DNA of 64,000 nucleotides from positions 76,436 to 140,435 of the forward strand of contig BDTD01000011.1 in assembly GCA_002897635.1 (NCBI GenBank). Reading direction: 5' to 3'. The DNA comes from a bacterium BMS3Abin11 (lineage in GTDB: Bacteria > Pseudomonadota > Gammaproteobacteria > BMS3Bbin11). Below, piece after piece: positions 35 to 44,595 of this stretch; the stretch's first letter is position 1; the number at the start of each line of letters is the position of its first letter. Below the pieces are notes generated by a model. It made no database searches. It was not told where the DNA came from and saw only the letters and a program-made list of their open reading frames with translations. The translations under genes and the position numbers were made by a program.

Positions 35-961
35 TTAGGGCACCCTATTAATGAGGTTAACGAAGATTTCTTCCAGCGAACTCTGGCTGGAGTGAAGATC
101 CTTAAAGTCTATGTCGTGCTTACCCAGCTCACGCAATAAGCTGGAGATCCCCGTGTGCTCCCGCTGTGTATCAAAAGTGTAGGTCAACACCTCACCATCC
201 GACGATAGATGCAGTGAATAATCGGCAAGTTCTTCGGGGATACTGGTTAATGGATGTTGCAGGGTCAGTGCCAGCTGCTTTTTCCCCAGCCTATTCATCA
301 GCACGGTCTTCTCTTCAACCACGCTGATCTCGCCATCCGTAATAATAGCAATGCGGTCGGCCATCTCTTCGGCCTCATCAATATAATGCGTTGTCAGGAT
401 GATAGTGACGCCACTTTCGCGCAGATGACGAACCATGTTCCACATCGCATGTCGTTGCTCAACATCGATGCCCGCTGTAGGTTCATCAAGAAACAGGATT
501 TTTGGCTCATGCGCCAGTGCCTTGGCAATCAGCACCCGCCGCTTCATGCCACCCGACAAATTAATGATCCTCTCATCACGCCTGTCCCACAAAGACAGGT
601 CACGCAGCACTTTTTCACAATGCGCGGGGTTAGCTGATTTACCGAACAGACCACGACTGAAATTCATCGTCGCCCAGACACTCTCAAAGGTTCCAGTAGC
701 AAGCTCCTGCGGTACCAGGCCAATTCTCGACCGTGCCTGCCGGTAATCTGTACGGATATCATGACCGTCCACAGCCACACTTCCCTCACTGGCAGTGACC
801 AGTCCGCAGATAATACTTATAAGCGTCGTCTTGCCGGCACCATTGGGACCCAACAGGGCAAAAATTTCTCCTCGATGTATATTCAGATTAATGTTGTTCA
901 GCGCACACAAGCCAGACGCATAGGTTTTGGACAGGCTTTTGATTGAAATGACTGGCTGCAC
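35..961 (-). CDS. ABC transporter ATP-binding protein (ABC-2 type)
   Basis: Walker [13 protein letters not shown] signature LSGGMKRR and Walker [13 protein letters not shown] are all present in the translated ORF. Confidence 0.85.
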
Positions 962-1067
962 GCATTTTCCTTTACTGCTGATATTGGACAGCTGCTGGCT
1001 GGGCGGCTATAACTTTCAATGGGCCTGATCATCGGGATGGAGCACAGGCCAGATTGTTTAACTATCG

Positions 1068-1427
1068 TCAGGCAACCACATCTGACCAGACTGCAAATTC
1101 ATTGTCATTCGGATCACTGAAATGGAACCGTCTACCGCCCGGAAATGAAAAAATCTCCTTAATAATTTTACCGCCGGCATTTTCTATTTTTGCTTGCATA
1201 GCCTCAAGATCCTTACTATAAAAAACCACCAGTGCACTTCCCTTTTCCGTGGACATATTTTTACCAGATTTAAAAAAACCGCCCTTTATCCCCGCATTGG
1301 AAAAAGTGGCATATTCAAGCCCGTAGTCAACGAAGCTCCAGTTAAACACTGTGGTAAAAAATACTTTAGCTGCATTCAGATCTTCGGCAGGGAATTCAAG
1401 ATAGTTTATTTTTCCGTCTTTGCTCAT
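1068..1427 (-). CDS. VOC family (glyoxalase/bleomycin-resistance fold) protein
   Basis: 119 aa with a PhnB/glyoxalase-like pattern (NYLEFPAEDL...FHFSDPNDNEFAV). Confidence 0.65.
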   Translation of the reverse strand: MSKDGKINYLEFPAEDLNAAKVFFTTVFNWSFVDYGLEYATFSNAGIKGGFFKSGKNMSTEKGSALVVFYSKDLEAMQAKIENAGGKIIKEIFSFPGGRRFHFSDPNDNEFAVWSDVVA

Positions 1428-4247: not shown

Positions 4248-4491
4248 TCGCGATCCATCCCCCTGATATAAAGAAAGCAGTTATATTTCAGTTTAGCATT
4301 AATTACGGCATCACGAGCGAGGCATGGCAAGCTTAAAAATACAGGGATCGCACGGTTACTCAATAGTATGTGCAGGGGTGGTACTCATACCAATAAATAG
4401 AAGCTCCCATAAAACATAATACGTAATGCGTAAAACATCCCCTCCCCCCCTTGACTAATTAGGACAGTTGTATTATTTTATACTTGATGAT

Positions 4492-4507
4492 TAGGACATG
4501 CGTCCTA
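4492..4507. promoter_or_regulatory. perfect 16 bp palindrome TAGGACATGCGTCCTA, candidate TetR-family operator in the nemA-like promoter region
   Basis: It lies about 50 bp upstream of the OYE gene start, downstream of TTGACT/TATACT-like -35/-10 elements. An additional half-site ATTAGGACA lies 25 bp upstream. Confidence 0.45.
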
Positions 4508-4555
4508 TTTTAATACGGAATATTAAAATAAATACCTGTCAAACTGGAGAAAATA

Positions 4556-5647
4556 ATGAGCAATAACCTGTTTAGTTCAATCACAGTGGGTGATCTCACA
4601 TTACCCAACCGGATGGTCATGGCACCGATGACGCGTAATCGTGCCAACCAGGACAACGCTCCGCACAGTCTGAATGTAAAATACTACCAGCAGCGCGCCA
4701 ACGCCGGTTTAATCATTACCGAAGGCTCGCAGGTCTCGATGGAGGGTGTGGGTTACCCCGGTACGCCAGGCATCTATAGCGATGTGCAAGTGGCCGGCTG
4801 GCGCGAAATTACCGATGCCGTACACGCCAAAGGTGGGCATATCTTTATACAGCTCTGGTATTGTGGACGTATCTCCCATCCAGATTTATTACCCGACAAC
4901 CAGACACCAGTCGCACCTTCCGCAATAAAACCGGAAGGTGATGCCGTTACCTTTGAAGGGATGAAACCTTTTATCACACCACGGGCACTCGAAACCGATG
5001 AGATTGCGGGCATTGTGGCACAGTACAAACATGCGGCGGAAATGGCCATAAAGGCGGGTTTTGATGGTGTTGAAGTGCATGGCGCAAATGGATATCTCAT
5101 CGATCAGTTCCTGCGAGATGGATCCAATCATCGCACTGACCGGTATGGTGGCAGCGTTGAAAACCGTATGCGCTTTCTCAATGAGGTACTCGATGCGGTA
5201 TGTGAAGTATGGCCTGACCAGCGCGTTGGGCTAAGACTGACACCGGAAAATAGTTTTAACAGCATGTCAGACTCCGATCCACAGACGCACTTTGCCTATT
5301 TTATTACACAGCTTAATTCACGCAAGCTGGCATATTTGCATATACTGGAAGGCGATATGATAAGCAAACAACGGCATGTCAACTACCGCAGCCTGCGTGA
5401 TAGCTTTGATGGTATTTACATAGCCAATAATGCATATGACAAAACGCGTGCTGAAGAAGGTATACGCAACGGAGATTGTGACATGGTTGCTTTCGGCATT
5501 CCTTTTCTGGCGAACCCAGATCTGGTATACCGTTATCAAAACGACCTGGCATTAAATGAAGCGGATCCGGACAGCTTTTATGGTGGTGATGAACACGGCT
5601 ACACAGACTACCCCTTTGCCGAGCACGTTAGCGCCGAATCGGCGTGA
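4556..5647 (+). CDS. nemA: NADH:flavin oxidoreductase, Old Yellow Enzyme family (N-ethylmaleimide reductase-like)
   Basis: OYE hallmarks are present: PLTRxR-like MAPMTRNRA, HGANGYLIDQF, RxDxYGGS. Length is 363 aa. Confidence 0.85.
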   Translation: MSNNLFSSITVGDLTLPNRMVMAPMTRNRANQDNAPHSLNVKYYQQRANAGLIITEGSQVSMEGVGYPGTPGIYSDVQVAGWREITDAVHAKGGHIFIQLWYCGRISHPDLLPDNQTPVAPSAIKPEGDAVTFEGMKPFITPRALETDEIAGIVAQYKHAAEMAIKAGFDGVEVHGANGYLIDQFLRDGSNHRTDRYGGSVENRMRFLNEVLDAVCEVWPDQRVGLRLTPENSFNSMSDSDPQTHFAYFITQLNSRKLAYLHILEGDMISKQRHVNYRSLRDSFDGIYIANNAYDKTRAEEGIRNGDCDMVAFGIPFLANPDLVYRYQNDLALNEADPDSFYGGDEHGYTDYPFAEHVSAESA

Positions 5648-5674: not shown

Positions 5675-6268
5675 ATGGGGAACAAAGGTGAAGCATTACG
5701 ACAACGGATTGTCGCATCTGCCGACCAGCTGTTTTACCAACAAGGATATGAAAACACTTCATTCAGCGACATAGCCGAAGACGTGGGGATCTCGCGTGGT
5801 AATTTCTATTATCACTTTAAAAGTAAAGATGAAATTTTAAACGCGGTTATAGACACCCGGCTCACCGACATCGAGCAGATGCTAGATGAATGGAGTAAAA
5901 AGTATACTGATCCCAGACAACGTATTATTATGTACATTGATATACTTACCAACCATCAGGACAATATTAAAAATCACGGCTGCCCCTTAGGCAGCCTGTG
6001 TACCGAGCTGGCAAAACAAAGTCACGTCATGTTGCAGGACGCGAACAAAATGTTTGCCATACAGCGTGACTGGTTAACAGTACAACTGAAAGAACTCGGC
6101 CTGGGTAAAAACGCCAAACAGGTTGCAATGCACTTATTGGCCCGCTCACAGGGCATCGCCACCATCACCAATGCCTTTGAAGATCAAGACTTTCTGCGTC
6201 AGGATGTAAAACGTTTAAAACAATGGCTAGATGAACAGATCCAGGGCCAGAACAAAAGTGGGAATTGA
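5675..6268 (+). CDS. TetR/AcrR family transcriptional regulator
   Basis: N-terminal HTH with GYENTSFSDIAEDVGISRGNFYYHFKSKDEIL. Confidence 0.85.
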   Translation: MGNKGEALRQRIVASADQLFYQQGYENTSFSDIAEDVGISRGNFYYHFKSKDEILNAVIDTRLTDIEQMLDEWSKKYTDPRQRIIMYIDILTNHQDNIKNHGCPLGSLCTELAKQSHVMLQDANKMFAIQRDWLTVQLKELGLGKNAKQVAMHLLARSQGIATITNAFEDQDFLRQDVKRLKQWLDEQIQGQNKSGN

Positions 6269-6345
6269 CCCTGTTATTCTCTCACAAAACGTCCTGGGTA
6301 CGGCAAAAACCTGAGACACTTTACCTGGAAACAGTTCGGTCTGAT

Positions 6346-6494
6346 AATAAACTACCCCGCAGCAAGCTGACGGGGTATTAAATGTAGGTGCGAATTCATT
6401 CGCACAGCGATGCCAATGTTTATGCACATTGTGCGAATGAATTCGCACCTACAGTTTTCGTGGCAAGCCACGGGGAATTATGCCCATAGGGATT
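6346..6494. mobile_element. 149 bp palindromic MITE-like repeat (copy A)
   Basis: Identical to the copy at 23081..23229. Contains a perfect 23 bp inverted repeat, GTAGGTGCGAATTCATTCGCACA / TGTGCGAATGAATTCGCACCTAC. Confidence 0.8.
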
Positions 6495-6540: not shown

Positions 6541-6700
6541 GTATATTATGGATCCGAACCTGAGTTGGTAGAAAAATAGAGGTGCCCTAATAGTATTCGT
6601 CATTTGCCTAATTAGGTCATAGATGATGAAGTTAATTTTTAGCGGCAGTCAACAGAACAAGAATTACGAAAGTGTTTGAATTTATAATACCCCACTGGCA
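6541..6700 (+). pseudogene. degenerate segmental duplicate of the 3' end of the glutaredoxin-like gene and its downstream flank
   Basis: About 80% identity to 2895..3070, with indels including a 12 bp insertion GAGGTGCCCTAA. There is no intact ORF. Confidence 0.6.
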
Positions 6701-6733
6701 GCCACATAACTCACAATAAAGTGCAAATCTGAT

Positions 6734-7489
6734 ATGTCAAATGTCAGTCCTGAACCCGTTACTCGTACCCACATGAATAAAATTGTAGTTACTGGATTTG
6801 TACTCATTGTCCTTTCGGTTGTGGCCGCCATGATAGCGCCATTAGGGAGCCGGATAGGTTATTGGGATTATACTGCTGCAGTAATGATTCTTGAATGGGC
6901 AGCCTATACAGGTACTGCATCTGCTTTGATTTGCCTGATTGGCACTTTTGTTGTGCGACCCAGAAATAGCCGCCTGGGATTTTTCTTAACCCTGCTCGGC
7001 TTAGCGATCATTATTCCGACACTTCTGTATTTGATGTACTGGAAGGATGCAGAAGAGAATGCACCACCCATACAGGACATCACCACGAATACAGAAAACC
7101 CACCCGAGTTCTGGGCTGCGCCAAATGCGCGTGTCTATGGGGGAGCCGCAGTAGCCACCTACCAGAAGGAAGCATACCCATATATTCAGCCATTACTGTT
7201 ACCAGTGCCTCCAGACAAAGCATTTGATTATGCAATAGAAGTGGTTCGGCAAAAAGGCTGGGATTTATTGGATGCAAATCGTAAGGATATGCATATTGAA
7301 GCAACTGAATCCACATTCTGGTTTGGTTTTAGTGATGATGTAGCCATAAACATCACTGCAACAGATTCAGGTGGCAGTCGGGTTGATATGCGTTCGACAT
7401 CACGCTTTGGTAGTGGTGGAGATGGCGGGACCAACGCCAGGCGGATTCGATCATTTTTTGCTACTTTAAAACCCAAAGCTGATAAATAA
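6734..7489 (+). CDS. DUF1499 domain-containing membrane protein
   Basis: Three predicted TM helices, then a C-terminal region with FWFGFSDDV...RSTSRFGSGGDGGTNARRI typical of DUF1499. Confidence 0.65.
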   Translation: MSNVSPEPVTRTHMNKIVVTGFVLIVLSVVAAMIAPLGSRIGYWDYTAAVMILEWAAYTGTASALICLIGTFVVRPRNSRLGFFLTLLGLAIIIPTLLYLMYWKDAEENAPPIQDITTNTENPPEFWAAPNARVYGGAAVATYQKEAYPYIQPLLLPVPPDKAFDYAIEVVRQKGWDLLDANRKDMHIEATESTFWFGFSDDVAINITATDSGGSRVDMRSTSRFGSGGDGGTNARRIRSFFATLKPKADK

Positions 7490-35103: not shown

Positions 35104-35820
35104 CTATGCAGATTTCCTTCTTCGGGCAAATCCCAGACCAGCAAGGCCGATACCAAAGAGTGCGAGGGTGGCGGGTTCTGGAACAGCTGGAACAGGAGCA
35201 GTTAGCAGGTAATTCACTTGATTCTGATAAAGCTGAACTTCGTCCGCGTAGCTAAGTGTGTTACCCAAAAATCCGTTGATGATCGTCGACCCACCGTTAC
35301 CAATAACTATGCCAGCATTTCCATCTTCAAAACTTGCCGCAACTACACTTCCAGTGTCTGGAAAAAAGCTACGAGAGTAAATGCCATATGTTGGATTAGT
35401 AAGGCTTAATATAGATGAACTTAAACCAGACGAAAACAATGATGTCAAAGTCAAAGTTCCCTGATTGGTATTTGCCTGAATAACATCAAATGCAGCATCA
35501 GCTTCCGTGAGCCAGTGGCCAAATATTGCGGCATCACCACCAGCAACATAACTACTCAAAGCGGCAGATCCTGTTGAGTGGCCGCTAGCATCGAATTGGG
35601 TAACAACGAGGTCCCAAGAGGTAGCTAGCTGGGTTACAAAGTCAGTGTCATTATTCACCCTTGTTACACTGAGTCCCAAACCACTTAAAGCGTCACCCCA
35701 TGTGTCAATACCTGAATACTCATAGTCATCATATAGAAGTATGGCTGCGTTAGCCGTATTCAAACCCGCTAGTAGAACTACCAGGCCCAGCAGAAACTTT
35801 AATCTTATTCTCTTAAACAT
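35104..35820 (-). CDS. PEP-CTERM sorting-domain secreted protein (intact)
   Basis: N-terminal signal peptide and a C-terminal VPEPATLALFGIGLAGLGFARRRKSA motif (PEP, TM helix, basic tail). Confidence 0.75.
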   Translation of the reverse strand: MFKRIRLKFLLGLVVLLAGLNTANAAILLYDDYEYSGIDTWGDALSGLGLSVTRVNNDTDFVTQLATSWDLVVTQFDASGHSTGSAALSSYVAGGDAAIFGHWLTEADAAFDVIQANTNQGTLTLTSLFSSGLSSSILSLTNPTYGIYSRSFFPDTGSVVAASFEDGNAGIVIGNGGSTIINGFLGNTLSYADEVQLYQNQVNYLLTAPVPAVPEPATLALFGIGLAGLGFARRRKSA

Positions 35821-35885: not shown

Positions 35886-35901
35886 AGCAATATCCATGCC
35901 A
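35886..35901 (-). promoter_or_regulatory. sigma-54 (-24/-12) promoter TGGCAT-N5-TTGCT
   Basis: Minus-strand read is TGGCATGGATATTGCT, with canonical GG/GC spacing, about 65 bp upstream of the PEP-CTERM start. Confidence 0.6.
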
Positions 35902-36250: not shown

Positions 36251-37441
36251 TCAAGACACACTCATCCTCTCAAGATAACAGAATCGTCTCATGTTATAGA
36301 CCAGATTCATCATGCCAATCTCTGTTCTTGCACGAACTCGGCCAATCGAACGGATAGCCTTTTTTCGCAAGTTGCTTTGTGCACCAAAAACATGTTCTAC
36401 ACGGCACCGTGTTTTTGAACGGGTATGGTTTCCCTGCTTCTCCCAGTTCGTCAGCTTCTTATTCTTGCAGCCTTTTCGTTGAACCTTGCTACGATAACCT
36501 GCCTTCTTAAGACTCGCCTCTTGCTCCGTTGAACGATAAGCACTGTCTGCCCAAACATCTTTGTTGCTATTGCCTTCATCTAACAGTTCATCAAAAACAT
36601 TCGAGTCATGAACATTCGAGTCATGAACATTGGCCTCGGTAACGTCATAGTCGCGTATCAGCTTATGACCATTATCAATCGATATATGGTTCTTGTAACC
36701 ATAGCTGTGTTTACCGTTCTTTTGCGTCCAGCGGGCATCCGTGTCCTTTTGCCTGCGCTTGTGACTATCCCAGTCCTCTGGAACATCATTTTCTTTGATC
36801 TGTTTGTTTTCTTCCCGGGTGTTTCGCTGAATGGGCACCTGGATTAATGAGGCATCAATGATCTGTCCTTTACGAGCAAGGTATCCTGCCTGGTTCAGTT
36901 GTGCAGTAAAAGCCTTAAACAAATCATCAAGAAGTGTTAATTCGGACAACCGATTTCTAAAAGCCCAGAAGGTCTTCGCATCGGGCGAACGCTGATGATT
37001 GTTCAACCCCAGGAATCTTTGAAAACTACGCCGGTCTTCAACCTGAAATTCAAGTTGGTCATCACTAAGACCGTACAAACTTTGTATCACGAGACCTTTA
37101 AATATCATCACCACATCTTTACGCGGGGCACCCAATTTACTCTTACGTTTCGTTTGCTGTGCTTTATCAAGTAAAGGTCTAAAAGCTTCCCAGTCAATGG
37201 CTTTGTCAAGTTCAAGTAAGGGATTGCCTAACTTGTCCAGGCGGATGTCCTGGGCGTCAAATAAGGAGCCAAATATGTCTCGGGTCATTCGAAATCCTCT
37301 GCAAGTTGGTTGAAGTTTGTAGCTTGGTATTTTAGCATTTATGTGACTAAATAGAGATGCCCATAAAGGTTTCAACTTACCCGTGTCAGCCGGGTCTAAA
37401 TCTATGCTGAGTATTGAGGCATGTTGCCTCAGCTCATTCAT
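36251..37441 (-). CDS. IS5 family transposase (DDE)
   Basis: DDE_Tnp_1 pattern with ...GYKNHISIDNGHKLIRDYDVTEANVHDS...ADSAYRS. Contains an in-frame 15 bp tandem duplication (NVHDSNVHDS). Confidence 0.85.
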   Translation of the reverse strand: MNELRQHASILSIDLDPADTGKLKPLWASLFSHINAKIPSYKLQPTCRGFRMTRDIFGSLFDAQDIRLDKLGNPLLELDKAIDWEAFRPLLDKAQQTKRKSKLGAPRKDVVMIFKGLVIQSLYGLSDDQLEFQVEDRRSFQRFLGLNNHQRSPDAKTFWAFRNRLSELTLLDDLFKAFTAQLNQAGYLARKGQIIDASLIQVPIQRNTREENKQIKENDVPEDWDSHKRRQKDTDARWTQKNGKHSYGYKNHISIDNGHKLIRDYDVTEANVHDSNVHDSNVFDELLDEGNSNKDVWADSAYRSTEQEASLKKAGYRSKVQRKGCKNKKLTNWEKQGNHTRSKTRCRVEHVFGAQSNLRKKAIRSIGRVRARTEIGMMNLVYNMRRFCYLERMSVS

Positions 37442-37696: not shown

Positions 37697-38467
37697 TCAG
37701 TCAACATTTTGGCTTAGAAGGTTCTTTTTGGTACCAAAATGGGCGGTGTAAGCACATGTCCGCTCCTTGATCTGGTACAGGTCCGCACTCTGGTGGACAG
37801 ATCGCCCTTTAGTCTTGATGCTCATTTGTTCTATTACGTTCTTGACAAAAGTCTGGCTACCCACTGCCACACTCTTACTCCAGATCTTCTGGCGCTGGCC
37901 ATCGTTCTTGCTCAGTGTTTCGTTAATCCATTTTTGATGGTGGACTTGCAGGCGTAATTCATCTTTCAGCCCCAGCAGCAATGCCAGGGCAACCCTGTCG
38001 ATGATGCGGTAGCGCTTTGGCGGCGACTGGATCTCGTGGTAACCACTGTGTTTCCACTCGCCGGGATGTGTGACTACACCCGCGCGCACCATATTCATGT
38101 CAACATAGATAAGACACCTTGCCAGGTATTCATCTGTATCCATGGCAGTAGCAAAATAACGATCTTCCCAGTAGGCCCCCTTTCGCTGTTTGCGCTGGTT
38201 GTATTCCTGTGCGGTACGCCCCGCAATGAGCTGCATGCTTCTGGAAATAACATTATCGCCCGTATCCATTATTACGAGCAGATGGATATGGTTCGACGTG
38301 ACAATATAGTTCAACACACAAAACCCATAGCGCTTCTTCGCCTGGAATAACCAGTAGCACCATCGTTCACGGTCACGGCTAAACTTCAGAAGAAATTCCC
38401 ATTTATGACAACGGCGTGTGATATGCCAGACGTGGCATGGTAGTGAGTGGCGATTGGCTCTTGGCAT
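37697..38467 (-). CDS. IS200-like Y1 (HuH) transposase, REP-associated tyrosine transposase-like
   Basis: HuH motif SNHIHLLV, downstream catalytic Tyr region. Family PF01797-like. Length is 256 aa. Confidence 0.75.
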   Translation of the reverse strand: MPRANRHSLPCHVWHITRRCHKWEFLLKFSRDRERWCYWLFQAKKRYGFCVLNYIVTSNHIHLLVIMDTGDNVISRSMQLIAGRTAQEYNQRKQRKGAYWEDRYFATAMDTDEYLARCLIYVDMNMVRAGVVTHPGEWKHSGYHEIQSPPKRYRIIDRVALALLLGLKDELRLQVHHQKWINETLSKNDGQRQKIWSKSVAVGSQTFVKNVIEQMSIKTKGRSVHQSADLYQIKERTCAYTAHFGTKKNLLSQNVD

Positions 38468-38589
38468 AACACTTCATCCTTAAAGTTGTTATTTTGTAAG
38501 GGGAATGGGCCTTTTAAGGCATGAAACGGGCCAATTCTAGCTCCATTATTCTATCTTATCAATGAGCTGGCTTGGTCTGACCCCAATGG

Positions 38590-38885
38590 TCTTTATTTTA
38601 GTAGTGTGCTGGCGCACGGCTGGAGGTTGTCCTTTTGGGTGTGTTTTCTTTTTTTATTTGATTTCTTGAATTGTTATGCGCTTTTCGTCCTTCATGGACG
38701 AGTTCATTTCTTTTCTACGGACAAAAGAAACGAACCAAAGAAAAGCCGCCCCATTGTGTTGGCCTGCGGCTGCTCTGCGCGCTTCAGCCTGAACCGGGCG
38801 CGGTGAACTCGGGCTTCGCCCTCAGACATGCACCGCGCTTAACCGGCCCAGACTTCCAGTACTCGACAACCCAAAAGGGGATGAA
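38590..38885 (+). repeat. ~290 bp structured non-coding repeat, copy 2
   Basis: See copy 1. Lies immediately upstream of the Y1 transposase gene. Confidence 0.75.
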
Positions 38886-39313
38886 CATCAAAATCGGTGC
38901 TAAGGCCCTTACCAATGGTAATTTGAACAGCTGCTTCCGGCCAAGATAAGTTGTCAGGTGTGTACTAACTCCGTCCAGACTGACGCTGCTAAACCGGCAA
39001 CCCGGTGTTTACTCGATCCCTGCCGGGAAACCCCAAATCAAATCCCCATAGCACGATGTTCTACACCAGCCGCATGGCTTCCCCCCGCGGTTTCCTCCCT
39101 CGAGGTTTGTCAGACGCCTGCCCGTTGAGTGCGTGATGCGCTGACAGGCCGGTGGTTGGGGGCAGGCATCTTACAACCCTTAACAACTGCGGACGTTTGA
39201 TAACGCCTTGCACACCGGCAGCATAAAGCAGAGCGACGAGGAACGGCGCTTTTTGCCGTCCGAGTGGATTTGTCTTGTTATGTGTATTTATCAAGTGCAT
39301 TGGTGTTTTGTTA

Positions 39314-39691
39314 TTACTGACAAATTGCTGGACAATTTTTACCCCCGCCATATCCAGAATAGCAAGGGCCACCATAGCCGTCATAACATGACCCACCATA
39401 GCCACTGTACGCACCACCACCATATCCCTTATTAGCACCACCACCATACCCTTCATATTTAGGTCCTCCATATCCTTTATATTCAGGACCACCGTAGCCC
39501 TTATATTTGGGGCCTCCGTATCCTTTATACCTAGGGCCACCGTATCCTTTATATGCACCACCACCGTAACCTTTATACTCGGATCCACCGTATCCATCGT
39601 AACAAGGGCCGCCGTAGCCTGCATAACCTTTGCATTCTGCAAGCGCAGAATTGAAGTAAAAAATAGACAAAACGAGTATTAGCGTTTTCAT
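39314..39691 (-). CDS. secreted Gly/Tyr-rich protein with about 11 tandem octapeptide repeats (KGYGGPxY)
   Basis: Signal peptide MKTLILVLSIFYFNSALA, then GYGG(P/G)xYK repeats flanked by Cys-containing ends. Strong GGAGG RBS. The overlapping ORF 39061..39642 is an alternative frame of the same repeats. Confidence 0.6.
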   Translation of the reverse strand: MKTLILVLSIFYFNSALAECKGYAGYGGPCYDGYGGSEYKGYGGGAYKGYGGPRYKGYGGPKYKGYGGPEYKGYGGPKYEGYGGGANKGYGGGAYSGYGGSCYDGYGGPCYSGYGGGKNCPAICQ

Positions 39692-39734
39692 TTTAACTTA
39701 CCTCCAAGGCGCTCAATAATGGGCATAGTAGAAG

Positions 39735-40369
39735 TTATGCAGACTTATTTCTTCGAGCAAATACCAAACCAACAAGGCCAAGACCAAATAGTGCAAGGGT
39801 AACGGGTTCTGGAACAACTGTTACGTATGTACGAAATGAAGCATCTGCTCCGTAATTTCTAAAAAATTGCCATTGGCCAAAATTGACCCACAGCTCCCCA
39901 CCCAAATACTGATCACTATTATCATTTTGATAAATATAAGCACTATTACCAAAATTCCCTGTTACGCTTGTATTTATAAATATATAAAAAGTTGTTCTCC
40001 AAAAGAAACTGATATATCTGATAAATCAAAACCAATCCAAGTAAGCGGTTGCTGATTAATTAATGAACCTGTTTCATAAAATAAATAATTTGATTCAAAA
40101 TTATCTAGAGGGGCCCCATTCTCAGAACTTCTAGTTAATCCAATTCCATAAGACCTCGTTTCGCTTCCGTGCCCACTCAATTCAACTTCTAGTCTTGATA
40201 AATACCCATCAATGCCAACTGTAAATGATTGTGCTCCAGGAATCACAAGACCGACAGTAGTATTACCCTCAACTTCTTGATCAAGAATTGGCATGCTGAA
40301 TGAACTCAATGGAAAAAGAAGTATAGCCAAAATTGAACCTATTGATCTATAATTTTTAGTAAATTTCAA
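39735..40369 (-). pseudogene. PEP-CTERM protein gene with an internal frameshift
   Basis: The N-terminal 131 aa ORF (signal peptide) ends at 39974. The PEP-CTERM motif VVPEPVTLALFGLGLVGLVFARRNKSA* is encoded in another frame, which stays open across the junction. Confidence 0.55.
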
Positions 40370-40429
40370 TTTTTTCTCCCCTCTAAAAAGTTTGTTTTAA
40401 ACAACACAATAAATACTGTTTGAATAGTC

Positions 40430-40445
40430 AGCATAAATCATGCCA
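40430..40445 (-). promoter_or_regulatory. sigma-54 (-24/-12) promoter TGGCAT-N5-ATGCT
   Basis: Minus-strand TGGCATGATTTATGCT, about 60 bp upstream of the frameshifted PEP-CTERM gene. Confidence 0.55.
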
Positions 40446-40643
40446 CCAAATAACTTCAATGATTTATGGACACTCATTCTATGAAGTGTAAAGTATACTG
40501 ACAGTTCAGCGGTCCTTGAAGGTCTCAGTAGGGTCGATAGCGGCTGTCTGCGACTGAAGCCTGTGAAAAGCAGTTTCGTGCTGTATGAATTGGCGCTTAC
40601 CGGCCATATGTGGGCATTTAATATCAAGTTATGACAGGAACTC

Positions 40644-41438
40644 CTAACAATTTAATAACTTCAACAAGAAGGTCTTGGCTTTACAAATGAGTGATACGTT
40701 TGAATCAACATACTCTATTTCGACGCCTAATTCTTCAATCACCTGTATTATCAACGATGAATTGATACCCTTTCCTGTTGGTAAGAAATAACTAGTTTCT
40801 TCAATATAACTTTCACCATCCTCAATTTTCACAACCTGCGCTGGCATCAAATGCGTTTCCTGATTAGCAACCATAATTCCTGCAATATAAAAATTCTTGT
40901 TTTGAGTGTGTGCAATTACTGGCGCACCACTAGCACCCTGTAATGCAGGAAATGATGTGTTAAAGCACTGTGTTTTGACTTTTTCCGGATACTCGCTTTC
41001 GATATACCGCATTATGTTACCTTTGTGGGCGAATGGCTCAATTTTAATATGCTTGCCTCCTCCACGCTTTCTTTCAATTGATATTTGACTATATTCATAA
41101 CAGTAAACATCTGCATTAAGAGCAGGCTGCTGCTTAGCAAACTGTAATGGAATAGCACCTTCAATAGGTGCAATTTTGCAAATTGCAATATCATAGTCTT
41201 TGGATGCTACTATTTCCGAGATAGCCCAAATTTCAACACGCTTACCGGAGTTAAAAAGAAATGCATATTTAGCGAATTCATCCCGCTCACCAAGTTCAAA
41301 TATATGTTTGGCTGTGAGAATGTGTAGATTATTACTGGTTCCAATAAAGCAACCTGTTCCTAAAATCTCTTGTATAGGGTCATGTTCCGAGGCAATAACA
41401 ATCGGAACTATTGCTTTTTCTGGCTGAAAAGTATCCAT
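40644..41438 (-). CDS. trypsin-like (S1/chymotrypsin fold) serine peptidase, no signal peptide
   Basis: Catalytic triad context: LTAKH (His), DIAICKI (Asp), GASGAPV (GxSGxP Ser). Confidence 0.75.
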   Translation of the reverse strand: MDTFQPEKAIVPIVIASEHDPIQEILGTGCFIGTSNNLHILTAKHIFELGERDEFAKYAFLFNSGKRVEIWAISEIVASKDYDIAICKIAPIEGAIPLQFAKQQPALNADVYCYEYSQISIERKRGGGKHIKIEPFAHKGNIMRYIESEYPEKVKTQCFNTSFPALQGASGAPVIAHTQNKNFYIAGIMVANQETHLMPAQVVKIEDGESYIEETSYFLPTGKGINSSLIIQVIEELGVEIEYVDSNVSLICKAKTFLLKLLNC

Positions 41439-42034: not shown

Positions 42035-43045
42035 TTAACCCGGAAACATCCGTCTGGCATCATAGGGTACCTGATGTTTAAGCATCATCCAGGTGGCTCT
42101 TGCCAATTTTCGGGCGACGGCCCGAATGGCAATAATGCCATTTGTCTTGGCCTTTTTTCGTTCATAGAAACGCTGTGCCAATGGCTCAAATCGTACTGCA
42201 AAATGTGCCGCTTCGGAGAAGGCCCAGGAAAGATATTTATTACCCGCTTTGGCATTGCCTTCACCTTTCTTTTTCCCATTACTGGTGCGTGTACTGTCCA
42301 CACAACGGCAATACGATGCAAAGTTGCCCGCACCCGCAAAGCGATGGATATCGCCGGTTTCCAGCATGATGGTCAGGCCGAGTATTTTTCCAATACCGGT
42401 GATTGTTTGTAGTATTTTAAAGACGTCTGTCAACTTCACCGCCTGATGTGCAGACGCCTCCAGAACATCAATTTCTCTCTGGGCGGCCTGATAAACGGCC
42501 AACCCCGCGCATACGGCCTGAAGTGTGTAACCATCCACGTGTGGCGGGACAAACTCAGGTTTGCGTAGTTTCTCCGAGCTAATTCGAATTCCCGTTGATC
42601 GCCATATCTGGCTTTGCACACTAATCAGTTGCGTACTGGCTGTTCTGACCAACGACAGCCTTCGTCGTAGCATGTCTCTAATCGCTCTTTGTTCTTTGGG
42701 GTAGATGTAGCCTGTGGGCAAGATACCCAGTCGCATGAGGTGCGCAAGGTGAAAGGCGTCTTGATGATCACCGCTGTATTTCAGGCCATCGTATTGCTTG
42801 ACTGCTGCCGTATTAACCAGCTGTAGATTGTAGCCCTGTTCTTGTAATCCATCGACTAACCAGTACCAATTGAAAGTCGATTCCACTGCGATCCCGCGCA
42901 AGGTCCTACGGTAAGGACGTAGTGTTTCGAGTGTCAGTGATAAATCATTGTTTAACCGCTTTTCAAACACTCGCTTGTCCTCTTCGTCGATGATAACCAC
43001 AACATGATTATTTGAATGTAAATCAATTCCGCAGTAATGTGACAT
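42035..43045 (-). CDS. IS110 family transposase (DEDD)
   Basis: N-terminal CGIDLH..., central and C-terminal IS110-family motifs (ITGIG...LETGDIHRF...GNKYLSWAF). Confidence 0.85.
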   Translation of the reverse strand: MSHYCGIDLHSNNHVVVIIDEEDKRVFEKRLNNDLSLTLETLRPYRRTLRGIAVESTFNWYWLVDGLQEQGYNLQLVNTAAVKQYDGLKYSGDHQDAFHLAHLMRLGILPTGYIYPKEQRAIRDMLRRRLSLVRTASTQLISVQSQIWRSTGIRISSEKLRKPEFVPPHVDGYTLQAVCAGLAVYQAAQREIDVLEASAHQAVKLTDVFKILQTITGIGKILGLTIMLETGDIHRFAGAGNFASYCRCVDSTRTSNGKKKGEGNAKAGNKYLSWAFSEAAHFAVRFEPLAQRFYERKKAKTNGIIAIRAVARKLARATWMMLKHQVPYDARRMFPG

Positions 43046-43342
43046 GTCAGTCTCCTCTTCGTTTGTGAGCAGCCAGTTTAACAACTGGCTGCGAGGAGGC
43101 TGGCTAGAGGATTATCAGACTCGATTGATCATGAGGAATTAGAATCAATTCGTAATGCCACCAATAATTCCTGGGTGTCTGGTAATGATTATTTCAAAAA
43201 AGAAATTGAACGTTTACTTAATCGTAGAACGGGGCAACTTCCCACTGGTGGTGACAGACGAAGTGAAAAATTTAAGAATCGTCATTGATTCGTTTTCTAT
43301 CGAGTCTGACCCCGTTGGTTTGGACCCCGTTGGTTTGGAGTG

Positions 43343-43873
43343 TTATATTACTTCCCAAGCCTTCAACTCAACCTCAATAGCATTGATGTACTTTAAACAA
43401 TCGTTTTTCTCGACAAGAATTGCACCATGAGCTAGGTCATTTCGAGCCTCTCGACCCTTATCAAGTGTATTGTAATCCTGCCATGTGAGAGTAATTTTTG
43501 AAACTTTCATCATGTAACCCAACTTATCACTTTTCTTGGCAATAACTTCTTCATTTTGTAGTTGGGATAACACCTGACCCAGAACAGAATAGGCGAGAAT
43601 AAGTAGGAGATTATATGACTCTTCAGGACGATCCTCATACATAATCATGCCACCTGCTAAATATAGTTTTGAACTTATCCTACTCTCAAGTTCACGAACC
43701 ACTGCCCAATCTTGGCCAATAGTTCTCTTTATTTTCTTATCTCTTATCACGAATCGTAGTAGGCGTTTAATAACGGGCTTAGGAGGAGCTATGAGGACTT
43801 CTTTCTTCGGGCAAATCCCAGAGACCAGCAAGGCCAATGCCGAATAGTGCAAGGGTCGCGGGTTCGGGGACAA
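43343..43873 (-). CDS. hypothetical protein, possible HEPN-like (Rx4H) domain. Start uncertain.
   Basis: C-terminal region has an R-N-D-L-A-H (Rx4H) motif. The track ORF overlaps the upstream PEP-CTERM gene by 95 nt, so the true start is probably internal. Confidence 0.35.
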   Translation of the reverse strand: MSPNPRPLHYSALALLVSGICPKKEVLIAPPKPVIKRLLRFVIRDKKIKRTIGQDWAVVRELESRISSKLYLAGGMIMYEDRPEESYNLLLILAYSVLGQVLSQLQNEEVIAKKSDKLGYMMKVSKITLTWQDYNTLDKGREARNDLAHGAILVEKNDCLKYINAIEVELKAWEVI

Positions 43874-44474
43874 CCTCTATACTATCAATTGTGCCACTGA
43901 GTTGAAGACTGTTCCTAAAAGAACCAAACAACAATCTGTATGAATACAGGGAAGCATCAAAAGGAACAAAATCTGGAAGGCCTATCCCGTCTAGCTCATC
44001 AGAACCCAATACCGCAGCAAAAGCCGTGGTCACCCAAATATCATCTAAGCTGCCCGTGCTTGGTGAAAAACCACCAAACTTCACAACACTATAGGCCTCT
44101 TCGCGATAGAAGGGAGATGTCGGTAGTACATCACGAACTTGAATATACCCCAGACTTAGACTCGACCATGAAAAATTCCCCACCGATAAATCAAACTCAT
44201 TTACCACATAATAGCGACCATAAGCCAAATTGTCAGGAAGCACATCCACTGGATTCGTTGTGTCATAAGTATATCTGCCAAATATTCTGTCTCATAAGCT
44301 GAAGCTAGATTCTAGGCCAGACTCTATAAATGATGCTGCGCCCCTGAACTCTACTGCTATCAGATTGGCCATGCTAGGAGTAGACAGTATCAGGGCAAAT
44401 AAGCCCGCGATATTCTGAGGCCGAAGATGCCCTATAGCTAATTTTTTAATTATAATTGTATTCCAATATTTCAT
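43779..44474 (-). pseudogene. PEP-CTERM protein gene with at least two frameshifts
   Basis: Signal-peptide exon (44292..44474) is out of frame with the body (43779..44249). The C-terminal VVPEPATLALFGIGLAGL is followed by a CT insertion that replaces GFARRKKSS* with WDLPEERSPHSSS*. Confidence 0.55.
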
Positions 44475-44580
44475 TATGGAGCCTCTGATTATGGAGCCTC
44501 TGATTAATAATTCTTTGTATCTTAGACCGTGTCTTTACTATTGAGTGAGCCTGAACAGTGGCCTTCCGACTAATACAAAA

Positions 44581-44595
44581 GCAACATCCATGCCA
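44581..44595 (-). promoter_or_regulatory. sigma-54 (-24/-12) promoter TGGCAT-N5-TTGC
   Basis: Minus-strand TGGCATGGATGTTGC, about 105 bp upstream of the signal-peptide fragment. Confidence 0.55.

Follow-up and report, generated by a model that had tools for sequence, protein, structure and literature searches.

A tyrosine-rich variant of a widespread family of cysteine-capped, glycine-rich octapeptide-repeat domains in bacteria

The subject of this work is the gene at positions 39314..39691 of a 64,000-nucleotide stretch of DNA (the window, a term that here designates the whole 64-kb stretch; contig BDTD01000011.1 of assembly GCA_002897635.1) whose host, the gammaproteobacterium 'bacterium BMS3Abin11', is a bin that we take to come from a deep-sea (hydrothermal) sulfide-deposit metagenome. 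The gene encodes a short, Gly- and Tyr-rich protein built from tandem octapeptides that, as far as its sequence can tell, is a rare Tyr-rich (GYGG) variant of a widespread and undescribed bacterial domain family, and it is almost certain that it is a real exported protein belonging to this family, whose usual plan is CxC-(xGPGGxxY)n-CPxxC. The behavior of the family points to its acting as a folded domain, and not as a free-running repeat or a disordered elastomer. The interpretation towards which we lean is that of a Sec-exported, disulfide-stapled, length-quantised Gly-rich envelope domain, of which the protein in the window would be a free-standing Tyr/Lys variant.

The precursor and its coding frame

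The precursor of 125 amino acids (aa; Table 1) opens with a hydrophobic leader, MKTLILVLSIFYFNSALA, which carries an AxA cleavage motif and, by a rule-based reading of the sequence, would be cut immediately before EC. Both the clean signal peptide and the GGAGG ribosome-binding site reported in a first-pass annotation of this DNA were recovered, the former by rule. The mature protein (Gly 38%, Tyr 21.5%, Lys 9%; pI 8.8) comprises 11 complete octapeptides, in agreement with the earlier count of about 11, and a twelfth unit fused to the C-terminal CPAIC cap (SGYGGGKNCPAIC), the chain ending in ...NCPAICQ. The G-x-G-G core is present in 11/11 full units and Tyr is the last residue in 10/11, unit 8 having Asn in its place. 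The six Cys (residues 20, 30, 102, 110, 120 and 124) are confined to the two ends of the protein, where the annotation had also placed them. Its description of an almost perfect 24-bp DNA repeat does not stand: Tandem Repeats Finder reports a period of 24 across 39393..39620 with only 74-81% matches, so that a very regular protein repeat is encoded by an imperfect DNA repeat.

The manner in which the repeats diverge bears directly on the coding frame. When the 11 units are compared pairwise (55 comparisons), codon positions 1, 2 and 3 differ 113, 83 and 262 times, and in the codons for GYGG the corresponding values are 0, 0 and 137. The closest homolog among species-representative genomes, found in a metagenome-assembled genome (MAG) of a sediment gammaproteobacterium (locus L014), is 78% identical (tblastn, 1e-39) and aligns without a gap, having identical length and the same 12 units; the two genes differ at 87 nucleotides (nt), distributed as 16, 17 and 54 over the three codon positions. 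The frame of 39314..39691 is thereby shown to be under purifying selection. The same 125-aa product has been called on 10 contigs, including those of NCBI GCA_011051025.1, two ENA assemblies, and the Logan assembly of SRR7787493. The codon-position statistics, the gapless 12-unit ortholog and the identical copies in independent assemblies together indicate that both the frame and the repeat number are real, and the concern that the array might be an assembly collapse can be set aside.

An open reading frame (ORF) of 193 aa on the same strand, 39061..39642, overlaps the gene and encodes a product rich in Val, Met and Thr. It was rejected as the true gene and is regarded as a shadow ORF, since differences concentrate at the third positions of the frame that starts at 39691; shadow ORFs of like kind accompany homologs at other loci.

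A widespread domain family

A phmmer search identified 20 proteins similar to that of the window (E 4e-23 to 3e-7), ranging from 86 to 178 aa and sharing a leader, a Cys-bearing N-terminal cap, GYGGPxYx units, and a C-terminal G..CPxxC cap. A profile derived from this first set of homologs and searched against 1.84 billion representatives yielded 392 clusters at E<=1e-3, of which 151 were at E<=1e-10, and a single peptide pattern located 79 loci in species-representative genomes. The hosts of these 79 loci belong to the Gamma-, Alpha- and Betaproteobacteria, Bdellovibrionota, Acidobacteriota, Nitrospinota, Campylobacterota and Omnitrophota; carriers in culture include Halomonas aquatica, Pseudoxanthomonas koreensis, Janthinobacterium lividum and Nitrincola lacisaponensis, and the habitats of family hosts cover sponge symbioses, soils, sediments, wastewater and lakes.

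In its fuller majority form, the family can be written CNCKGYxGPGGPCY-(xGPGGxxY)n-GPGGTGxxCPxxC, and a hydrophobic N-terminal segment precedes the domain in most members. Gly is found in 98-100% of units at positions 2, 4 and 5, and Tyr in 96% at position 8. Variability is concentrated at position 3, where Pro, Val, Tyr, Ile and Leu occur and where Pro, not Tyr, is the residue in most members, and at position 6 (Pro or Ala); position 1 is Asp, Ala or Ser in most members, Lys being common in the variant from the window. The CPxxC cap is near-invariant and usually lies 1-3 residues from the C-terminus, very often within one; in the window protein a single residue follows CPAIC, as in most family members. 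This protein departs from the family in having Tyr at position 3 of every unit, in place of the Pro of GPGG. Tyr is the majority residue at this position in just 12 of 178 domains, and in 2 of the 73 that belong to the 12-unit class. The statement of the first-pass annotation that such a protein is unusual in bacteria therefore holds for the Tyr-for-Pro (GYGG) version, which is rare, and not for the domain family, which is widespread.

Scans of the window protein against Pfam and NCBIfam returned no family at E<=0.1, and the repeat domain was likewise unmatched when one GP-type member was scanned against NCBIfam and fused members against Pfam. A sequence-profile search of the PDB gave 0 matches at E<=10, no paper dealing with these family proteins was found in the searchable literature by way of GYGGP, GPGGPAY, GPGGPCY or similar motifs, and every source name of family members is 'hypothetical' or 'uncharacterized'. 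The possibility of a phage family was ruled out, a relative being encoded on just 4 of 2.9 million viral contigs (L093-L096, IMG/VR). One of these IMG/VR contigs, of 46.9 kb, encodes a GV-type 12-unit family protein. A tblastn search of plasmids and phages with a GP-type member produced no match, a result that is uninformative in that the low-complexity filter may have masked the query.

Unit number and the cysteine scaffold

When units were counted from the C-terminal cap over non-redundant domains, their number was found to peak at 12 (73 domains) and 6 (47), followed by 7 (21). Most 12-unit members measure exactly 108 aa from CxC to CPxxC, and the window protein, with its 12 units and a span of 107 aa over the corresponding stretch, is in line with the size of the family. 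Cysteines are equally regular in their placement, the canonical pattern of eight consisting of the CxC cap, position 7 of units 1, 4, 10 and 11, and CPxxC, and being complete in 59 of the 73 12-unit domains. The window protein has six of the eight, and is without the first Cys of the N-terminal cap (Cys1) and the Cys of unit 4. These two residues are both present in 71 domains and both absent in 5, namely the window protein and four other 12-unit members, and in no domain is one of them missing singly. This joint presence and absence argues that Cys1 and the unit-4 Cys are partners in a disulfide, as judged from sequence covariation. The units themselves are not equivalent, in that the commonest residue at position 7 among 12-unit members is Glu in unit 5 and Arg in unit 7.

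A possible passage between the two size classes is illustrated by two paralogs on the complete chromosome of a Ca. Spongiihabitans MAG (OZ242212.1), located 365 kb apart (L015 5989..6393, 134 aa; L067 5989..6249, 86 aa). The shorter paralog corresponds to the longer one minus exactly six units (144 bp, in frame); before and after the deletion the two are identical in DNA sequence, and their flanks are unrelated. These observations suggest a gene-sized mobile unit and a conversion from 12 to 6 units.

Predicted fold

With an alignment of 21 homologs, AlphaFold2 produced a model of the precursor with a predicted local distance difference test score (pLDDT) of 75, in which the only helices were those of the signal peptide and a short one at the extreme C-terminus, no strand was present, and confidence was low solely where the alignment was gapped. 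Modelling of the mature domain from a 45-sequence alignment, which took in 44 further family members, mostly of 12 units, gave a mean pLDDT of 82.7 and a predicted template modelling score (pTM) of 0.55, with no residue below 50; strand was again lacking, and the sole helix was one turn in the CPAIC cap. Taken together, the quantised units, the fixed 108 aa, the covarying Cys pair and the confidence of AlphaFold make it probable that the domain is a folded, disulfide-stapled module.

The nearest likeness, although not a match, is to the Gly-rich polyproline-II bundles, which include the snow-flea antifreeze protein, the N-terminal domain of Obg, the tip of gp38 of phage S16 and the glycine-rich domain of ALK/LTK. 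The domain shares with them a high Gly content (38%, at least one-third), Gly at i and i+3 (positions 2 and 5) as well as at position 4, and Pro or other side chains on the third face (positions 3 and 6). In addition, the snow-flea protein is disulfide-stabilised, as the domain is proposed to be, and the AlphaFold model of the window domain is confident with almost no helix and no strand. By geometric reasoning at three residues per turn, Gly 2 and 5 would line one face, Gly 4 a second, and positions 3 and 6 the third. Peptides of the type (Pro-Gly-Gly)n are reported to assemble into polyproline-II sheets of two layers, in which Pro faces out and Gly faces in, and polyproline-II bundles tolerate varied flanking domains (10.1101/2023.11.25.568672), as does the present family. 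The likeness, which is drawn from sequence, has its limits: the period of the family is 8 and not 3n, Tyr is conserved in every unit, the helices would be very short, and the window domain has neither a sequence nor a structural match to a solved example. A polyproline-II-type bundle is a candidate for the fold, to which we would give slightly less than an even chance.

Several points weigh against the reading as a folded bundle. The covariation of the Cys pair depends on 5 sequences, possibly of a single clade, which makes the number of independent losses uncertain. AlphaFold confidence can be inflated on repeats, and one of the five models scored 47. DSSP is blind to polyproline-II, and the fold class is thus derived from sequence logic and the lack of strand and helix. 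Finally, since the 8-residue period is not a multiple of 3, polyproline-II helices would be of about 5-6 residues, shorter than those of known bundles.

On the favoured reading, the mature 107 residues would represent one copy of the domain, with an N-terminal cap (C)xCKGY, twelve octapeptides x-G-(P/Y/V)-G-G-(P)-x-Y, and the CPxxC cap. Removal of the signal peptide, followed by thiol oxidation in the periplasm, would generate three disulfides, the family norm being four, and the one missing from the window protein would be that of the covarying Cys1 and unit-4 Cys. These bonds would staple the twelve segments, each short and rich in Gly, together as a compact fold that is nearly free of helix and has no strand, in which Gly 2, 4 and 5 pack inward and positions 3 and 6 point outward, as in the (Pro-Gly-Gly)n sheets. 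Tyr at position 3 and the frequent Lys at position 1 would then create a dense Tyr/Lys surface, and the product may serve as a rigid binding or adhesive module of the envelope, a free-standing form of a domain that is elsewhere fused to TPR, Sel1, DUF4124, SH3 and BamE proteins. The most ambitious version of this reading, to be taken as tentative, is that the family constitutes a new natural class of disulfide-stapled polyproline-II-type bundle with 8-residue instead of 3n-residue repeats and 6 or 12 segments, present in many phyla and sometimes as an integron cassette, with the window protein being a sticky, Tyr/Lys-coated module that binds to the envelope or to surfaces.

The same composition could, in principle, be that of a disordered elastomeric or adhesive low-complexity protein in the manner of silk GPGGY, resilin, tick cement or mussel foot proteins, in which the number of repeats is free and function resides in bulk composition. 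The Gly and Tyr contents (38% and 21%) and a model almost devoid of regular secondary structure are compatible with this view, the GPGG(x)Y motif is reminiscent of those of elastomeric silks, and GYGGP occurs in a paper on a tick glycine-rich cement protein. A protein of this kind, however, would be at odds with units quantised at 6 and 12 in a domain of fixed length (108 aa), with an invariant Cys scaffold that includes a covarying pair, with unit-specific residues that recur at position 7 (Glu in unit 5, Arg in unit 7), with a model of pLDDT 83 and pTM 0.55, and with a 78%-identical ortholog of identical length; it is therefore regarded as unlikely. Eukaryotic Gly/Tyr-rich proteins offer a related comparison: composition and a short motif are shared with the tick cement protein, and spider silk GPGGY, resilin and nematode GY-rich peptides likewise resemble the family in composition or short motifs, but no homology was detected, and the present proteins are bacterial, keep a fixed length and an invariant scaffold of Cys, and conserve residues that are specific to individual units.

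Two further comparisons can be made. Like the RTX repeats, whose nonapeptide GGxGxDxUx builds a calcium-binding parallel beta-roll, the family alternates a Gly-rich turn with a short segment bearing one large hydrophobic or aromatic residue, and has even repeat numbers (6 and 12); unlike it, the period is 8 and not 9, there is no conserved Asp, the models are strandless and Pfam gives no match. Hevein-type chitin-binding domains are, as the family appears to be, small and Gly-rich with four disulfides (in the canonical form) and exposed aromatic residues, and offer an analogy for possible glycan binding; they differ in lacking the repeat architecture and show no sequence similarity to the window domain.

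Fusion partners, neighbors and possible mobility

Among the 74 longer members, the domain is C-terminal on TPR (at least 9), DUF4124 (3), Sel1 (2), SH3_3 (1) and BamE (1) proteins, and Sel1-like proteins adjoin family genes in four loci (including L016). The TPR, Sel1, DUF4124, SH3 and BamE partners are cell-envelope modules. These partners and the surface chemistry are what speak for a binding or adhesive role, and a function in envelope binding is conceivable and yet on the doubtful side.

Clustering of neighboring genes over the 79 loci revealed no conserved partner, and no conserved oxidase, immunity gene, dedicated exporter or processing gene lies near the homolog loci. The largest neighbor cluster, seen at 8 loci, is made up of tyrosine recombinases together with integron integrases. 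At one of them (L018), an integron integrase (4348..5322, minus strand; TIGR02249, 512 bits) is directly divergent from the family gene (5980..6402, plus strand), which occupies what would be the first-cassette position; at another (L022), an integrase 62% identical to that of L018 (491..1528, minus strand) accompanies a family gene at 5989..6390 (plus strand). A further genome, represented by one gammaproteobacterial MAG contig (L036), carries two near-identical 12-unit family genes (932..1399 and 6565..7050) 5.6 kb apart.

A separate question is whether the gene could encode a mobile accessory effector, that is, a secreted Gly-rich, disulfide-bonded antimicrobial peptide, bacteriocin or other diffusible product. 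The small, cationic (pI 8.8), exported protein would fit such a role, as would the integron integrases beside two members (L018 and L022) and the genome with two gene-sized copies in unrelated flanks, and Gly/Tyr-rich antimicrobial peptides exist in nematodes. The lack of a conserved immunity, dedicated exporter or processing gene nearby argues against it, however, as do the occurrence of the same domain at the C-terminal end of envelope proteins of the TPR, Sel1, DUF4124 and BamE types, which is ill-suited to a toxin, and the predominance in the family of Asp, Ala or Ser at position 1 and not of the Lys of the variant. This explanation is considered to be quite improbable.

The locus and its PEP-CTERM neighbor

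The features of the locus are collected in Table 1. As stated in the first-pass annotation, the gene lies downstream of a PEP-CTERM gene and is co-oriented with it, with a gap of 43 nt. This neighbor is split by a frameshift near a T/A-rich run, which yields an N-terminal ORF of 131 aa that carries a signal peptide and an 88-aa stretch in another frame with the sorting tail; the same split is seen in four assemblies (L001-L004), and the gene could be either a pseudogene or the site of a programmed shift.

Table 1. Coordinates of the repeat gene, its parts and surrounding features in the window
Feature	Position	Strand	Remarks
Precursor coding sequence, including stop	39314..39691	-	125 aa; ORF list, third-position bias, identical product on 10 contigs, homologs
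Sec signal peptide MKTLILVLSIFYFNSALA (predicted), residues 1-18	39638..39691	-	Predicted cut after ALA; rule-based reading of the sequence
Shine-Dalgarno GGAGG	39701..39705	-	9 nt 5' of ATG; read from the sequence
N-terminal cap ECKGY, residues 19-23	39623..39637	-	Matches the family CxCKGY cap without its first Cys; alignments
11 complete octapeptides x-G-Y-G-G-x-x-Y, residues 24-111	39359..39622	-	Cys at position 7 of units 1, 10 and 11
Twelfth unit merged with C-terminal cap, SGYGGGKN-CPAIC, residues 112-124	39320..39358	-	Followed by Q125 and stop
PEP-CTERM gene, frameshift-split near 39975-40000	39735..40369	-	PF07589, E = 2.4e-7; stop 43 nt before the ATG of the repeat gene
Sigma-54-like -24/-12 element TGGCATGATTTATGCT	40430..40445	-	TGGCATG-N4-ATGCT; 61 nt 5' of the start at 40369
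Sigma-54-like motif near-identical to TGGCATGATTTATGCT	35886..35901	-	5' of the PEP-CTERM gene 35104..35820
Sigma-54-like motif near-identical to TGGCATGATTTATGCT	44580..44595	-	5' of the PEP-CTERM gene 43779..44249
Transposase genes DDE_Tnp_1/DUF772, IS200-like Y1, IS110 family	36251..37441, 37697..38467, 42035..43084	all -	Bracket the locus

The element TGGCATGATTTATGCT is a possible promoter of a transcript that would read into the repeat gene. The earlier description of the neighbor as sigma-54-driven survives in part: motifs of the -24/-12 type are indeed located there and 5' of two other PEP-CTERM genes, but TGGCATG-N4-(T/A)TGCT matches the window 42 times against 40 expected by chance, so that placement alone is suggestive. 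A terminator scan found none between the PEP-CTERM and repeat genes, the one weak site being within coding sequence, and a search of Rfam over 38400..40700 gave nothing relevant.

This arrangement underlies the proposal, made in the first-pass annotation, that the protein is an extracellular matrix component associated with the PEP-CTERM/exosortase system, co-expressed from a sigma-54 promoter and cross-linked through its tyrosines. The co-orientation at 43 nt with no terminator found in between, the sigma-54-like motif upstream and its counterparts, and the Lys- and Tyr-rich composition are in its favor, and the signal peptide is a trait that PEP-CTERM substrates also have. The protein, however, ends in CPAICQ and has no PEP-CTERM tail (PF07589 or TIGR02595; Pfam and NCBIfam, E<=0.1), the window ORFs that were scanned include no exosortase, and every assembly examined has the frameshift in the upstream PEP-CTERM gene. 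Moreover, homolog loci do not preserve the adjacency: within a distance of 6 kb, 0 of the 79 genome loci showed a genuine PEP-CTERM tail, by a pattern that recovers two in the window, and none was present in the contexts of four further members (P0012, P0020, P0007 and P0017). The 78%-identical ortholog in L014 adjoins an unrelated large gene, in a neighborhood that differs from that of the window, and the three insertion sequence (IS) transposase genes that bracket the locus imply that the adjacency may be recent. In a diderm, furthermore, a Sec signal by itself takes a protein to the periplasm and not to the matrix. The matrix role is thus considered very improbable.

Other features of the locus can be mentioned briefly. 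Downstream of the repeat gene, towards the first two transposase genes, the short-read contigs L001 and L002 stop within about 1.2 kb. About 135-210 nt past the stop codon of the repeat gene lies an inverted repeat (39103..39123 and 39160..39180; 21-nt arms, 86% complementary, 36-nt spacer, no Rfam match), which could be a terminator, an attC-like site, a REP element or an IS end. Just upstream of the PEP-CTERM gene, a Trypsin_2 peptidase of 264 aa with no obvious signal peptide is encoded at 40644..41438 (minus strand); it is identical to GBE07813.1 and also matches HDZ77782.1.

Least probable alternatives

An ice-binding or antifreeze protein akin to the snow-flea polyproline-II bundle is suggested by the Gly-rich, disulfide-stabilised sequence, by a predicted fold with almost no helix and no strand, and by the cold adaptation of some hosts, such as Montanilutibacter psychrotolerans, but is rendered highly improbable by the origin of hosts from sponge symbioses, soils, sediments, wastewater and lakes, by a bulky conserved Tyr where an antifreeze face would be flat with Ala, Thr or Gly, by the lack of a sequence or fold match to any antifreeze in the PDB, and by a host presumed to come from a deep-sea sulfide deposit. 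That there is no gene at all, the ORF arising incidentally from a tandem repeat that is non-coding or the 193-aa ORF that overlaps it on the same strand being the real frame, is a negligible prospect, given the third-position excess in the 39691 frame both among units and against L014, the conservation of this frame in hundreds of homologs, and the Val/Met/Thr-rich, shadow character of the alternative, which recurs at homolog loci.

Significance and a possible lead

Few natural families of glycine-rich polyproline-II bundles are known, and they are of interest to protein design. If the proposed fold is correct, a compact, disulfide-locked, length-quantised domain present in hundreds of clusters would provide a tractable new example; the mature domain of six-unit members has only about 60-70 aa. 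The domain is not represented in Pfam, NCBIfam, the PDB or the searchable literature, and there is a risk of mis-annotation, in that family proteins resemble low-complexity or eukaryote-like sequence and could be masked or passed over, yet behave as a folded domain.

It is also of note that the hexapeptide GPGGPA, which is also a collagenase substrate, is present in 128 of 235 family proteins (292 occurrences; P0002-P0245, GP-type), the window protein having GYGGPx in its place. The majority form of the family is hence a natural bacterial source of GPGGPA, and the synthetic peptide Z-GPGGPA serves as a positive control that induces settlement and metamorphosis of Cassiopea larvae (PMC10286705), a link that is noted here as a lead only.

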